From the UHGV virus genome UHGV-0067928: 24,002 nucleotides of DNA; one strand, given 5' to 3'. The notes under the pieces were generated by a model. It had not been told where the DNA came from. It did not search any database and was given only the letters and a program-made list of their open reading frames with translations. This DNA comes from a virus. Of this stretch, positions 1,405 through 6,579 are shown one piece after another. The position numbers were made by a program, and so were the translations under genes. The first letter of the stretch is position 1. Each line of letters begins with the position of its first letter.

Positions 1405-3879
1405 CTACATTGCCATTAATATAAACATAGCCAATTCGTCATAACGAATTCCGTAGCGTCCACCTGCTTTTTTTACAAGAATCATATTTCCTGTTTTATA
1501 TTGAGAATAAATTTTCTCACCTGTATCAGGATCTGTGCTCTCTTCAGTTATCACCTCTTCATCCCATACGTCTGGCCATTCATCGTAACACCAAAAAGCA
1601 TATTGCTCAGGATTTAAACCATGCTTTCTAAGAATATCTCCTACGGTTTGAGCACCAACTCCAAAATGATACCTTGATAACTCCAATCCTTTAAAATTAA
1701 TCGACTCATTAAACCTGAACTTGCATATAATTCCCTTTATTTCCAGCGCAGCATCACGCTCTGCCTGAGTAATGTCATATATTGTTTTAAGTGTTTCATC
1801 TGATGTGCTTATAGTCCCGGATGCAGAATAAATCTGAGCCCATCTAAATGATGGTGCACCAAGAGATTTGCTGTTATCAATAATTGGTGAAAAATTACCT
1901 TTAATGGCAATATTTCCAGAGTCGCCGAATATATTAATAACTGCAGAGTCATCACCATGGTTTTTTACGCTTAAGTTTCTTGATGAAATATTTATATCTT
2001 TGTTATATCCACTAACATAAATCCATCTTTTACCATCAATGTGATGCCCGGAAATATTTCCGTTTGATTGTTCGTCAGGTGACTCTCTAAGAACAATAGC
2101 ATCTACTCCAGACGACCATTGTATTTTTGTATCTGTAGGCCTCCAGTTCTTTATAATGAACGAACCATCAGTAAACTCCGTTTTTATTTGTCTATTGTCT
2201 ACAAATGCGTCTCTTGGTTTAAACTCACTTGTGTTAACGCTGCTCTGAAGATCAGAAGCAAAAAATCTAAGATTTCCTGTATAACCCTGAGTCTCGGTCA
2301 GGTTATACGCAATCATAATTCCATTTTCAAACTCAGATGATGTTATTTTAACATCACGGCAATCACCAAAAATGCAATTTCCTTTATCAAATGTTGTTTG
2401 AGCTTTGAATTTATCAAACCTTAAATTACGAACAGGGAAACCATCAACCTCTAATGCAAAGGATGCAGGAAGGCCAAAGTATTCTGATGGCTTACCTGAT
2501 GTATGATCAAGAGTAGTGGCTACTGTATTCTCAAAAACAGTCCCGCTAAAATTATTACCAATTGACGGAAACCTGATTACACTTATTGTACCTTGTATTT
2601 CAGGAGAAATACCAGATAGTGTGATGTTAGTTCCATCAAATGATGCATCTGAATACGTATATACTGATTCACTGCCAGCAATTTTAAACTGTTTAACTGA
2701 AGTTATTCTCATCGACTTTTTATGTTTAAATGTCACTGAGCTTTCAGTATTACTTACAAGATCAATCTGAGGGCTATTCCTTATCGCGATTCCTGACTGG
2801 ACATAAACGTTATTAAAGTGCGTTTTTTCAGGATTTCCCTTCATTGAAAGGCTCCCGTCATTTTCTGTCAGTAGTAGTCCTTTTACCCTCCAATAGCCGA
2901 CAATCTGTACGTTATCAATAACTGAATCACAGCTATCGTATACATGCAACCCTATATCCCAGTTATCACCCAATGAATAAGAATCAGGGTTATTGTATCC
3001 TTCAATACCATTTTTACTTACCATTATTCTCAGATTGCGTAACTGTGATGCCCTGTTGATACTAACAGCTACGCTCATGGCTTTTGGTGTAGCAGGAGTA
3101 ACACCTACAGAATCTTCATTCGTAAACTCAGTGAACTTACAAGATATCCCTTCAACAATTTTAGCTGGTCTTTCATTAGAGATGTTAAAAAAATATTTGT
3201 TTTTTTCTCCATCACCAGTAAATACAAGATGGGTTCCTTTACTCCAACTTTTTAATAATCTTTCAGGCGCTGGTCTATATGTGTCCCAATAATCAATGCC
3301 AGATCCAACCAGTGAACACCCCTCAGGAATGTTAATATTCTTCTTGATGATGCATATTCCTTCAGGAATTGTTATAACCGACCTTCCAGAGTTTAAAGCT
3401 TTAATAAAAGCATCTGAATCATCTGTTACCCCATCTATTTTTGCTCCCCACCCTCTAACATCTCCACAATCTCTCCATCGTGCCATCTGCAACTCAGGAT
3501 ATTTTTTAGCGCCATCTGGATCTTCTAATTGCTGCCGTAGCTGATCGGGGTCATACTTCAGCACATTAGGAAAATAGAACTGCTGCGCACCATACGCATC
3601 GTATACAGCCATAGAATGGCCTTGCACAGTTACGAACTTGGCAATCTGTCCGTTATATACCGGATATCCAGCAGCGTTAATGATGATTGGCTGCGAAACA
3701 GGAACGTGAGAACCGTCTTCATTCTCCACATAAACCTGAATCTGGTTTTCAGGATTTACTGGGTCAGTGTCAATTTTACCGATATAAATTTTGCCATTGG
3801 CTACGGCTTTAAAAGAACGAGCCATAGTGAAGAGTTGAGAAGGCATGCTCACTACAACATTGGCTGTAATGTCTGTCAT
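1405..3879 (-). CDS. Tailspike protein: P22-type head-binding N-domain, beta-helix receptor-binding/depolymerase body, C-terminal S74-like autochaperone domain
   Basis: N-terminus [11 protein letters not shown]...[12 protein letters not shown]...VLKYDPDQ closely follows the P22 gp9 head-binding domain. Repetitive beta-helix-like middle. C-terminal ~130 aa begin [11 protein letters not shown], resembling the intramolecular-chaperone (peptidase S74) domain of endosialidase-type tail fibres. SD GGAG lies 8 nt upstream of the ATG. Confidence 0.9.
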
Positions 3880-3943: not shown

Positions 3944-3966
3944 GCACTACACTTTTTGTGTAGTGC
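3944..3966. promoter_or_regulatory. Perfect 9-bp inverted repeat in the tailspike leader
   Basis: GCACTACAC-TTTTT-GTGTAGTGC. No flanking U-run on either strand. Shares the CTACAC/GTGTAG half-site with the arc/mnt operator cluster. Confidence 0.3.
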
Positions 3967-4014: not shown

Positions 4015-4038
4015 TAAAAAAACCCAGCCGAAGCTGGG
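4015..4038 (-). terminator. Intrinsic terminator between ant and tailspike
   Basis: On the minus strand: CCCAGC-TTCG-GCTGGG followed by eight T. Matches the terminator known between ant and gene 9 in P22. Confidence 0.6.
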
Positions 4039-4057
4039 TCGTTGCGTTGGTTATCTG

Positions 4058-4981
4058 TCAGTAGTTATGTACTGAAGGAGGTAATTCTTTATTCTTAAGT
4101 CTCATCCATGCGGAAATATTCGTTGGTCCGTCTGGCTCATTGATATCAACATCTCGTGTGTGATTGATTAAAACGTCTCTCGCCATTCCGATAACATACG
4201 AGAATTCATGACCGTAGTCGTAGCATCTGCCGGAATAGTTCGATTGAATTTGTTTTAATGCCGGATACAGTTCGCGGAATAATGCCTGTGAGCGGTTGGC
4301 ATAATCCCATAGCCATACAAGGCTGTTTGCTTCTTTTGCAGAAAGCTCGTTGGTTTTCTTCTCTTGTTTGCCAATGAACTCACCTTCAAGCGGAACTCGA
4401 GCTGCAAGTGACAGTGCTTCGGTAAACTGCTCCTCACTGATTTCTTTGTATGAACATCCAAAATGGGATTTCAGTGACGACCACATGGTGATCATCGCCT
4501 TAGCCTGTTTTTCCTTTGGCAGAGACTGACCGCGACTCATGACGAGTTGTTTAATGGCTTCCTGCTGTTCAGTGGTGATTTTACCCGGCAACGCCTTTTT
4601 AGCTTTGCGTGGGTTAACTACATGACCTTTAGTCCAGTACTCATAGAGCACATCGTCACACTCTTCCTGATACTGGATTACCTTGTCGCGGATTTCAGGG
4701 CGGACTTTGTTAGGGCTGATGGTTTGCAACCAGCCATTCAGTTTACGTAAAGCAAGGCAAATCATGGTCTGCACACCGCCAACTGAAGGTATTGCGATTT
4801 CCACAATACCTTTAGCAAATCTTTGTTTTAACTTTGTAAACTGTGAAGCCCAATCCATACCCATTCCCTCAACGATAGGTTTCATTGGGGTATACGGTTC
4901 GCCGTTGTGATTGACAACATAAAGCTCTGCGCCGTGGAATGGTACATTGATAGTAGATACTGCTGTTGCTATACTTTTCAT
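4058..4981 (-). CDS. ant: Antirepressor Ant
   Basis: 307 aa. The N-terminal region (MKPIVEGMG...[24 protein letters not shown]...[15 protein letters not shown]) matches the AntA/P22 Ant family; it sits downstream of arc as in P22 immI. Confidence 0.8.
4947..4975 (+). promoter_or_regulatory. Putative Psar promoter (antisense to ant)
   Basis: -35 TTGATA (4947-4952), 17-bp spacer, -10 TATACT (4970-4975), located within the first codons of ant on the opposite strand. Confidence 0.45.
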
Positions 4982-5054
4982 GTCGTTAATTCCTATGCGT
5001 GGTTTTACGATACCGAAGCCCTGACTGTTCCAGCAGTTGGGGCTTCAACTTTTT
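4982..5054 (+). ncRNA. sar: Sar-like small antisense RNA covering the ant ribosome-binding site
   Basis: About 70 nt from the predicted start after Psar to the hairpin GAAGCCC...GGGCTTC (5015-5046) plus TTTTT (5050-5054). Complementary to the ant start/RBS and arc 3' end, the same architecture as P22 sar. Confidence 0.4.
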
Positions 5055-5185
5055 AGGCTGCGAATAAGACGCTGCACTATTTCTGAATTTAAAGACCTGC
5101 CCTCCTCCTTAGCCTTTTCCTTCAATTTTTCTTTAATCTCTGGCGGGATACGAATCCCTAATGGAGCGATGTCTCTAACTTTCAT
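5045..5185 (-). CDS. arc: Arc-like ribbon-helix-helix repressor
   Basis: MKVRDIAPLGIRIPPEIKEKLKEKAKEEGRSLNSEIVQRLIRSLKS (46 aa) shows the Arc/MetJ pattern (GRS-NSEI). The ATG at 5185 is preceded by GAGGTG; the longer ORF-track start at 5245 has no RBS. Confidence 0.75.
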   Translation of the reverse strand: MKVRDIAPLGIRIPPEIKEKLKEKAKEEGRSLNSEIVQRLIRSLKS

Positions 5186-5199
5186 TTCCACCTCACTTG

Positions 5200-5283
5200 C
5201 TACACCGTGACAACTAAATACTACACCGTGTTTATTTAAAGTCAAAAATTTTTTGCCTACACTGTGTAGCTACGCACAGTGTG
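5200..5283. promoter_or_regulatory. Divergent arc/ant and mnt promoter-operator region
   Basis: Direct repeats CTACACCGTG at 5200-5209 and 5221-5230; palindrome CTACAC-T-GTGTAG (5257-5269) inside the longer inverted repeat ACACTGTG...CACAGTGT (5259-5282). Candidate minus-strand promoter: -35 TTGACT (5240-5245), -10 TAGTAT (5218-5223). Confidence 0.5.
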
Positions 5284-5294
5284 CAGGAGGAGAA

Positions 5295-5546
5295 ATGAAA
5301 GGTGCAAGAGATATCAGTCCATTGGGGATTAGGATTCCAGACTATTTAAAGAAACGCATTCAGCAAGAAGCGGATAAAAACGGCAGATCAATGAACTCAG
5401 AGATTGTGCTTATCCTTCAAAAACATGTTGATAATCTTGATGGCTCTCGCTCACTTGAAGGATTCGCTAACCAAGAAGCTGATAAATTCAAAGAGGCGCT
5501 GCTTGAGACGCTGAGGAACATGCAAGAAAACAAAAAACCCACCTGA
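5295..5546 (+). CDS. mnt: Mnt-like ribbon-helix-helix repressor
   Basis: MKGARDISPLGIRIPDYLKKRIQQEADKNGRSMNSEIV... (83 aa) has an RHH N-domain and C-terminal helix like P22 Mnt. SD AGGAGG lies 5 nt upstream of the ATG at 5295, divergent from arc. Confidence 0.75.
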   Translation: MKGARDISPLGIRIPDYLKKRIQQEADKNGRSMNSEIVLILQKHVDNLDGSRSLEGFANQEADKFKEALLETLRNMQENKKPT

Positions 5547-5559
5547 AGGTGGGTTTAGT
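5538..5559 (-). terminator. Intrinsic terminator of the two-gene operon (convergent with the mnt 3' end)
   Basis: Minus strand: ACCCACC-TTCA-GGTGGGT followed by TTTTTGT, immediately after the TAA of the 149-aa gene. The stem overlaps the last codons of mnt. Confidence 0.6.
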
Positions 5560-6004
5560 CAAACATAGTGTTTCTAAAGTCTCTCGCATACCCTGCTAAC
5601 ACTCTCATTCTATTATGATTGTTAGCAGACATGTGAGCTACAGGATGAAAAAGAGCAATCAATGAATACCTGTTCTCATCAAAAAGATTTTGTGCATAAA
5701 CGAGAGCGGTATTGGATGTTTTATGCCACTGCAACTTTTGCGGTGTGCTGATATCTGTGCCATTTTTTATTGGCTCAAATTTATTTTCACCAATTGCTAA
5801 ATGAAGGTGCATAAGACCTGCATCTTCAATATCAGGAGGCCGATGATAAGAGGTGTCTCTGCCAAAATAGCTGGGCAACGTTCCCGTAGACTTGTAGATG
5901 ATAAAATCATCTACAAGTGTTTGTTTTAAATCAGGAAACTCAACAAAAACCGGGGAGAAAAAATAGTCAAAACTATCCTGATTATATTCCACGGTTACTT
6001 GCAT
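5555..6004 (-). CDS. Hypothetical protein, 149 aa; candidate toxin/effector of a two-gene module
   Basis: SD GAGG 7 nt upstream; start lies 8 nt after the stop of the upstream gene. No confident domain; a faint recalled resemblance to YafO-family toxins (FGRD, HLHL segments) is unverified. Confidence 0.6.
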   Translation of the reverse strand: MQVTVEYNQDSFDYFFSPVFVEFPDLKQTLVDDFIIYKSTGTLPSYFGRDTSYHRPPDIEDAGLMHLHLAIGENKFEPIKNGTDISTPQKLQWHKTSNTALVYAQNLFDENRYSLIALFHPVAHMSANNHNRMRVLAGYARDFRNTMFD

Positions 6005-6012
6005 GTTTTACC

Positions 6013-6579
6013 TCAGTGGAAGTTACCAGAGTGAAACACACGAGTCCCGTGCTCAGCAAGCGCACACAAACCAGCCATATCTACGGAACTATCAAAAACA
6101 ACCGGAACACATGAGCGTTGTTTAATAAGACTATTCAGGTTAGTTACGGCAGATCTAGCATCAGCAACAACGATATAGATATCTCTTGCGATCTCTTTAA
6201 AATCAGCAGAAGCTTCTTTGAATACCGATTTCATTGCCCCTTCAAGTCCTCTCAATTGATGCTCTATCAATCGAGACTTTTCTGGTTCAATGATAGACAA
6301 CACATTGTCTACATTCTCATCGGTAGCGTTTGCAAGAACACGATAAGCGTATTTCAGCATTCGAGACAATTCTTTAATCGAAGACACCGCCTCATGAAGC
6401 TCATTATTAGCCCGTTCACTGCTGAATGAGGATTGATGGTAAGCGTGCTGAACGTTATCAGTAACAACCACCTCACAACTGAACGCAGAAGCTTGCTGTA
6501 ATAGCAAACCTATTGCGACTCCAGCTTTGGCAGCGTTCAAGCTAAACATTTCATCAATCCCATTAGTCTCATTGCTCAT
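6013..6579 (-). CDS. Hypothetical protein, 188 aa; first gene of the two-gene module
   Basis: The ATG at 6579 is preceded by AAGGAGG with a 5-nt spacer; the ORF-track start at 6609 is less likely. Predicted helical, no recognisable motif. Confidence 0.6.
   Translation of the reverse strand: MSNETNGIDEMFSLNAAKAGVAIGLLLQQASAFSCEVVVTDNVQHAYHQSSFSSERANNELHEAVSSIKELSRMLKYAYRVLANATDENVDNVLSIIEPEKSRLIEHQLRGLEGAMKSVFKEASADFKEIARDIYIVVADARSAVTNLNSLIKQRSCVPVVFDSSVDMAGLCALAEHGTRVFHSGNFH

Follow-up and report, generated by a model that had tools for sequence, protein, structure and literature searches.

The repressors Arc and Mnt of phage P22 are textbook models for the reading of DNA by a beta-sheet and for the divergence of specificity between related repressors. 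They have two different DNA-reading heads, MSKMPQFNLRWP in Arc and ARDDPHFNFRMP in Mnt, and two different operators. In phage lambda, CI and Cro act at divergent promoters through one shared set of three related dyad operators (OR), placed between and over the promoters. The omega repressor of pSM19035 is a ribbon-helix-helix dimer that reads short units, either direct or inverted, with the heptad core ATCAC. According to PMC3413123, ParG of TP228 is likewise a ribbon-helix-helix dimer reading short direct or inverted units; the same paper cites Knight & Sauer (1989) and Raumann et al. (1995) for a change of operator specificity on swapping N-terminal residues between P22 Arc and Mnt. Papers on phages epsilon34 and L handle the diversity of the immI region at the gene level only, and we found no description in the literature searched, including work on immI diversity, of an immI variant with a shared head and one operator type.

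Matches to Sf6, HK620 and N7-like Lederbergvirus genomes identify the window studied here, a stretch of 24,002 nucleotides from virus genome UHGV-0067928, as late-region DNA of a P22-like (Sf6/HK620/N7-type) prophage or phage. Its mnt and arc-ant genes are divergent and sit between the ejection-protein genes and the tailspike gene, in the order mnt, arc, sar, ant that is annotated for P22 (BK000583). We identified arc, mnt and ant by Pfam, together with a full-length sar RNA (Table 1), and the locus is therefore a complete P22-type immI (immunity-I) module. For sar, a promoter-like TTGATA-17-TATACT lies at 4947-4975, with a terminator hairpin at 5015-5046. The Shine-Dalgarno sequences are GTGAGGTGG for arc' (5188-5196, minus strand) and AGGAGGAG for mnt' (5285-5292), the mnt' ATG lying at 5295.

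Table 1. Coordinates of the genes and of the observed or predicted regulatory features of the locus
Feature	Position	Strand	Basis or remark
Tailspike gene	1405-3879	-	ORF map
ant (antirepressor), 307 aa	4058..4981	-	Pfam P22_AR_N E 8.5e-45, P22_AR_C E 5.7e-30
sar antisense RNA, spanning the arc-ant junction	4983..5050	+	Rfam RF00262, 81.2 bits vs gathering score 43, full length 1-68
arc', 46-aa ribbon-helix-helix repressor MKVRDIAPLGIRIPPEIKEKLKEKAKEEGRSLNSEIVQRLIRSLKS	5045..5185	-	Pfam Arc PF03869, E 5e-13
Arc' head codons, in a 24-nt inverted repeat with the Mnt' head codons (5307-5330), 83% complementary	5153..5176	-	Repeat analysis, codon comparison
Operator A (predicted), CTACAC-C-GTGACA	5200..5212, centre 5206		CAC-N-GTG core kept in relatives, outer bases vary
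Pant (predicted, sigma-70): -35 TTGACT (5245-5240), 16-nt spacer, -10 TAGTAT (5223-5218)	5218..5245	-	Promoter prediction
Operator B (predicted), CTACAC-C-GTGTTT	5221..5233, centre 5227		Overlaps Pant -10 and spacer
A5T6 tract upstream of Pant -35	5244..5254		Sequence; T-run just before C kept in most relatives
Operator C (predicted), CTACAC-T-GTGTAG, perfect dyad	5257..5269, centre 5263		Nearly invariant in alignment of relatives
Weak dyad D, ACGCAC-A-GTGTGC	5272..5284, centre ~5278		ACACTGTG on minus strand, 5275-5282; abuts mnt Shine-Dalgarno
mnt', 83-aa ribbon-helix-helix repressor with C-terminal helix	5295..5546	+	Pfam Arc, E 6e-8

Mnt homologues are widely labelled 'partition protein ATPase' (RefSeq phage records, PHROG 2685), which appears to be a propagated annotation error, and E. 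coli RefSeq genomes list the 46-aa Arc' as a 'YlcI/YnfO family protein'. Converging on mnt are a YafO-toxin-like gene (Pfam E 3e-22) and a 188-aa ORF (5555-6004 and 6013-6579, minus strand), with a bidirectional terminator hairpin (5535-5556) common to both sides; the 188-aa ORF (phrog_8416, no Pfam match) precedes the YafO-like gene in one operon. The pair may constitute a toxin-antitoxin or exclusion system within the ant moron; a PADLOC search of the neighbouring genes returned nothing useful. The module is also present, at 94% DNA identity, in the lambda-like siphovirus PhiR12_1 (PV340549.1, 39.6-41.2 kb), where mnt-arc-ant sits in the tail gene cluster between the tail tip genes K and L, and it travels as a unit between P22-like and lambda-like phages.

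The arc-mnt intergenic region measures 109 bp (5186-5294), one less than the 110 bp given in an earlier sequence-only reading, which had correctly counted four CTACAC hexamers in it. The two direct repeats of CTACACCGTG, 21 bp apart, that were described there are found at 5200-5209 and 5221-5230, and the described palindrome, CTACACTGTGTAG, lies at 5257-5269 upstream of the mnt Shine-Dalgarno, 16 bp before which it ends. It is nested, as claimed, in a longer imperfect inverted repeat (5254-5271 / 5268-5285, 72% complementary), and an exact 8-nt inverted pair, ACACTGTG / CACAGTGT, is present at 5259-5266 / 5275-5282. The clustering of sites is far above chance: counting both strands, the 24-kb window contains 15 copies of CTACAC, of which four lie inside a single 70-bp stretch of the intergenic region, and all six matches of the core ACACNGTG in the window fall inside 5202-5282 (81 bp), with 2.5 expected over the whole window. 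The intergenic region repeats a single motif type, and repeat analysis revealed no second repeated motif within it.

The arrangement of these sites is best read, from the sequence, as a series of imperfect 13-bp dyads of the form (C/T)TACAC-N-GTGTA(G/A), with centres A-B-C-D spaced 21, 36 and ~15 bp apart. The view of A and B as lone direct-repeat half-sites is thereby replaced: in the window both are imperfect dyads with a complete left arm, C is perfect, and the impression of direct repeats given by A and B is a local one, a Serratia relative having A = CTTCAC-T-GTGTAT and B = CTACAC-G-GTGTTT. The central CAC-N-GTG is the most conserved part. We folded 73 sites into a consensus, collected with a pattern that fixed positions ±2 and ±3 and restricted ±1; beyond these pattern-set positions, A occupies ±4 in 74% of half-sites and T occupies ±5 in 72%, with ±6 weak and none conserved further out. 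In the alignment of relatives selected by protein similarity, the invariant columns are GTG of A, AC..GTG of B and TACA.TGTG of C.

The centre base of B is C or G depending on the lineage, with unchanged arms, and since CACCGTG and CACGGTG are mutual reverse complements, this switch fits the expectation of symmetric recognition. In two IMG/VR modules (L076 and L081), dyad C is present and two direct AGCTACAC repeats, 11 bp apart and without a GTG arm, replace dyads A and B downstream of the ant promoter. Because direct repeats without a GTG arm occur in these two modules, CTACAC is probably the elementary unit, and to this extent the half-site claim seems to hold. A ribbon-helix-helix dimer may accordingly occupy either a whole dyad or each single hexamer.

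We additionally noted variant sites. In phage 611R6, Citrobacter sedlakii and Serratia bockelmannii, many arms read (G)ATATCAC and not CTACAC, giving GATATC flanks, and these GATATC-flanked dyads may be composite sites for two different heads. A comparison of 611R6 with phiv205-1 for an operator specific to the alternative Arc head revealed nothing convincing beyond the GATATC-flanked sites. A simple arm-to-core code, which would pair an RD arm with CAC.GTG and, as in Paraburkholderia, CAT.ATG with NQ or AH arms, is contradicted by Massilia and Edno5.

We investigated the distribution of the dyads in three ways. A first set of 13 relatives, chosen by protein similarity to Arc' and Mnt', included modules of E. 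coli lambdoid phages (PhiR12), Pluralibacter, Serratia (two), Salmonella, Photorhabdus, two metagenomes, Edwardsiella phage Edno5, Erwinia phage Midgardsormr38, E. coli phage 611R6 and Paraburkholderia. The dyads are kept in all 13, as is the B-C distance of 36 bp, including in Paraburkholderia. An independent scan on DNA only, with CACNGTG-N10-GTCAA-N12-TACAYTGTG over 185,579 species genomes, gave 11 matches, in Thiothrix (two), Massilia, Rahnella, Oceanisphaera, Vibrio, Moraxella, Citrobacter, Orbus, Tatumella and Serratia. All 11 are mnt/ant-type modules with an mnt-side ribbon-helix-helix gene, the product of which has an R-x-I/V-x-P-x-G-x-R head in every case. The arc side carries the same P-x-G-x-R head in seven of the 11, has an unrelated ribbon-helix-helix head (KSENFMLRLP) in Citrobacter sedlakii and Serratia bockelmannii, and is absent from Vibrio and Moraxella, dyads A, B and C being kept in both of the latter groups. 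A scan of IMG/VR identified about 17 further distinct intergenic sequences between two such heads, 13 with the 36-bp dyad pair. More than 30 modules share the design, the range extending from Escherichia to Thiothrix, Massilia and Paraburkholderia, with the P-x-G-x-R head on the mnt side and mostly on the arc side too.

The association of the dyads with the Mnt-type head is firm at the level of sequence, and we consider the dyads very probably to be operators of that head. Since they persist without arc, or with another arc head, only the link to Mnt is firm, Arc' being joined to the sites only through its sequence identity with Mnt'. This is the main reason why the proposal that both repressors read the same half-site is only partly supported: the tie to the Mnt-type head stands in all 11 modules of the DNA scan, and Arc is not required for the dyads. 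The dyads might be operators for Mnt' only, with Arc', for all the likeness of its head, having a different or much weaker specificity, or acting in another way, for example in mixed oligomers. Such a division is what one would read from the four scan modules with an unrelated or missing Arc, in a set selected by DNA motif that always carries the Mnt-type head, and from phage 611R6, which pairs an RDIAP-type Mnt with a different Arc head (EVSRILVRMP) and has CAC-N-GTG dyads at B, C and D. It is harder to reconcile with the same head type on the arc side of most modules, with the single repeated motif of this intergenic region, with the maintenance of head identity despite synonymous divergence (see below), and with the setting of specificity by N-terminal residues in P22 Arc and Mnt (Knight & Sauer 1989, as cited in PMC3413123). 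We regard it as rather unlikely, and the use by Arc' of the same sites as Mnt', for which sequence identity argues, as reasonably probable.

The two proteins begin with MKVRDIAPLGIRIP (Arc') and MKGARDISPLGIRIP (Mnt'), which share the head motif RDI(A/S)PLGIRIP. Ten of 13 head residues match, bearing out the claim that the DNA-reading strands are essentially identical, against five of 13 between the heads of P22 Arc and P22 Mnt. The likeness is unusual, as had been stated, only by comparison with P22; in the wider family a shared head is the common state. Alignment with P22 Arc and Mnt places Pro, Gly and Arg at the outward-facing positions of the strand, and these three residues are invariant in both proteins across the family, the inward-facing residues being variable. 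Since Pro and Gly take up two of the three DNA-facing positions, specificity has to come from Arg and from the N-terminal arm, which differs slightly between the proteins (MKV-RDIA in Arc', MKGA-RDIS in Mnt').

Alternatively, the heads might be identical only because arc and mnt underwent recent gene conversion or duplication, in which case the identity would be functionally meaningless. In favour of this, an inverted repeat joins the two gene starts (Table 1), and the inward-facing residue is often the same within a locus. However, five of the ten identical head residues have different codons, among them the strand Arg (CGT in arc', AGG in mnt'), which differs at all three codon positions, and the common P-x-G-x-R head recurs in many divergent lineages in which the genes are otherwise only ~40% identical. 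Since half of the identical residues differ in codon, recent gene conversion is unlikely, and we rejected it on codon usage as the source of the identity; we consider this explanation very improbable. The identity of the heads, their differing codons, and helices that match at only 11 of 29 positions point to selection on the head.

Inward-facing strand residues showed a pattern of their own. At the position after the conserved Pro, the Arc and Mnt of one locus often carry an identical residue: L/L in E. coli and Tatumella, T/T in Photorhabdus, and F/F in Thiothrix, Massilia, Oceanisphaera and Orbus. This matching could reflect shared descent, occasional conversion or, if mixed dimers form, a packing constraint. 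A near-identical copy of the locus (IMGVR_UViG_2675903606_000016; L012 / L067) has the strand Arg of Arc changed to His (GIHIP), site B mutated to CTATACCGTG and an altered Pant -35 region, AGTCGAAAATTTG, and looks to be decaying in several places at once.

Outside the head, both proteins have the Arc/Mnt ribbon-helix-helix organisation of a beta-strand and two helices with a G-R-S-x-N-S-E turn (Pfam, and alignments to 1mnt, 1baz and 1arq). The phmmer matches of Arc' are to P22 Mnt (1mnt) and P22 Arc (1baz, 1arq), and the best PHROG match of Arc' and Mnt' is one and the same PHROG, the Mnt family. Mnt' aligns with residues 1-75 of P22 Mnt (1mnt), and its AlphaFold model has helices at 16-28, 33-50 and 54-78; a Foldseek search with the model retrieved Arc, AmrZ and other ribbon-helix-helix structures, with weak E-values of at least 0.12 that identify the generic fold only. 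The third modelled helix (54-78) would be homologous to the tetramerisation region of P22 Mnt, and Arc' is without it. With this extra predicted C-terminal helix in Mnt', it is plausible that, as proposed, oligomerisation is all that sets the two repressors apart. In its final 11 residues (LRNMQENKKPT), Mnt' agrees with the phiv205-type Mnt (P0028) and not with its closest relatives, which suggests a recombination joint inside mnt.

Promoter prediction places the start site of Pant near 5211. Of the 22 related intergenic regions scored, 21 have the same Pant as their top arc-sense prediction and the remaining one has it second, its -10 beginning 4-5 bp from the centre of B and overlapping the outer half of the dyad; B therefore overlaps the -10 and spacer. 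Site A spans about -2 to +12, over the predicted start site, so that the positions of B and A, as predicted, reproduce those of operators in P22-type immI regions. Lying exactly 36 bp from B, C has its centre near -52 of Pant; it falls within the leader or promoter of mnt, just past the A5T6 tract, which is likely to be, by its sequence, an UP element of Pant.

For mnt we obtained two promoter candidates, with no consistent prediction across the related intergenic regions scored. The first is P22-like, with a -10 abutting the Pant -35 / GTCAA that reads TATxxT in most relatives; this window has only TATTTA, 2 nt further away. The second, TTTAAA-17-TACACT, uses the left arm of C as its -10 and is preferred by the promoter scan here. 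With either candidate, a protein bound to C would block transcription of mnt.

Instead of protein operators, the repeats might mainly be elements of the two promoters (-10 and UP sequences of Pant and Pmnt) or of RNA structure, in the form of a hairpin in the leader of mnt. The outer half of B does belong to the Pant -10, TACACT in C is scored as a -10 paired with a TTTAAA -35, and the exact inverted pair ACACTGTG / CACAGTGT could pair in RNA. Against this, dyad symmetry is kept at three positions regardless of promoter role, the central base of B is C in some lineages and G in others with constant arms, and the motif co-occurs with one particular ribbon-helix-helix head in distant bacteria. 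The partner of the hairpin, D, is conserved neither in position nor in sequence, lying 15-23 bp from C in relatives or being absent, and a conserved hairpin between C and D was ruled out for this reason. We consider this reading highly improbable.

The A-B distance varies from 16 to 29 bp across the family, and one tetramer geometry can thus not be assumed; it is 21-22 bp in all modules whose Mnt has a P22-type C-terminus, and only in this group. That A-B spacing tracks the C-terminal type of Mnt fits, as far as the sequences go, with a setting of site spacing by oligomer geometry.

We also considered a further palindrome outside the intergenic region. A perfect palindrome with 9-bp arms, GCACTACAC-TTTTT-GTGTAGTGC, lies at 3944-3966, between the ant terminator (4021-4040) and the tailspike start, and contains the operator hexamers, separated by a 5-nt spacer. 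A stem homologous to it, GACCTACAA-AAAAA-TTGTAGGTC, is present in P22; it differs by three compensatory changes and, oddly, contains the outer hexamers of P22 Omnt. A role as a fifth operator or part of the module was rejected: epsilon34 is without the whole insert, and other CTACAC-type modules are without a palindrome before the tailspike.

Taken together, we think it moderately probable that the region is the operator-promoter core of a P22-type immI switch in which both repressors act on shared CTACAC dyads. The near-identical heads and the single motif make it the simplest reading that Arc' and Mnt' act on common sites and owe their difference to the third helix of Mnt', probably competing for these sites and not holding separate operators as in P22. 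A strong leftward Pant would drive arc'-ant and a rightward promoter mnt', both governed through the dyads, which the repressors would read by the N-terminal arm and the beta-strand R-x-I-x-P-x-G-x-R-x-P. Occupation of B would shut Pant, and Pmnt too if this promoter has the P22 geometry; occupation of A would block initiation or escape at Pant, and occupation of C would block mnt. In a lysogen, Mnt' would keep Pant shut via A and B, so that ant is silent, and would limit its own synthesis via B and C. Arc', made from Pant and with the same head, would exert rapid negative feedback on the same sites in lytic growth, like P22 Arc.

A broader suggestion, which we offer tentatively and hold at somewhat below an even chance, is that the locus exemplifies an ancestral and still widespread form of immI, with one operator type and two competing paralogous repressors of the same head, from which the separate specificities of P22 are derived. 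The Mnt-type tetramer would then serve maintenance and the Arc-type minimal dimer feedback, and mixed dimers may occur. If this is true, the outcome would be set purely by oligomerisation and fixed geometry, that is, the 36 bp between B and C and an A-B spacing that tracks the Mnt C-terminus.

The locus represents a natural family, of more than 30 modules in Gamma- and Betaproteobacteria, that keeps one head and one operator type, and which therefore lets one test how much regulatory difference oligomerisation and site spacing give by themselves; it also shows what the ancestor of the P22 system may plausibly have looked like. In practical terms, it supplies a searchable DNA signature for prophage antirepressor modules, predicted operator sequences for annotation, and a P-x-G-x-R head motif with a candidate cognate site, CAC-N-GTG flanked by TA. 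Should the two proteins not share sites, the finding would shrink to a well-conserved set of Mnt operators, which would be ordinary.

Comparison with the P22 immI region reveals the same genes in the same order and orientation, sar RNA included, a strong predicted Pant with one putative operator in the spacer/-10 and another over the start site, an Arc of ~50 aa with the ribbon-helix-helix fold, and a ribbon-helix-helix Mnt with a predicted C-terminal helix where P22 Mnt has its oligomerisation helix. The core CACGGTG, which had been said to echo the P22 mnt operator, is indeed the centre of the annotated P22 Omnt; MAFFT aligns this centre with site A and the Oarc region with B, and A corresponds by position to Omnt and B to Oarc. 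In contrast to the two operators and two heads of P22, a single motif is found here at A-D and both heads are RDI(A/S)PLGIRIP, with Pro, Gly and Arg as the DNA-facing strand residues where P22 has Gln or His, Asn and Arg. The longer mnt leader additionally contains the perfect palindrome C, of which P22 has no counterpart.

As for omega and ParG, the likeness rests on the ribbon-helix-helix fold and on a short unit, CTACAC, that is found inverted in the 13-bp dyads and, in two IMG/VR modules, in direct orientation 11 bp apart; the omega core ATCAC also resembles the TATCAC variant of phage 611R6 and Citrobacter. Unlike the contiguous arrays of 7-8-bp units in those systems, the sites here are three separated dyads at fixed promoter positions, and partition or copy control is not involved. 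Lambda CI and Cro offer the same combination of two repressors, divergent promoters and one operator set, shared binding here being inferred. They are helix-turn-helix proteins, whereas the present repressors are ribbon-helix-helix paralogues with the same reading head, and the output controlled here is an antirepressor and not the lytic genes themselves. By analogy, the logic of this immI region would nevertheless be closer to the shared operators of lambda CI and Cro than to the two proteins and two operators of P22.
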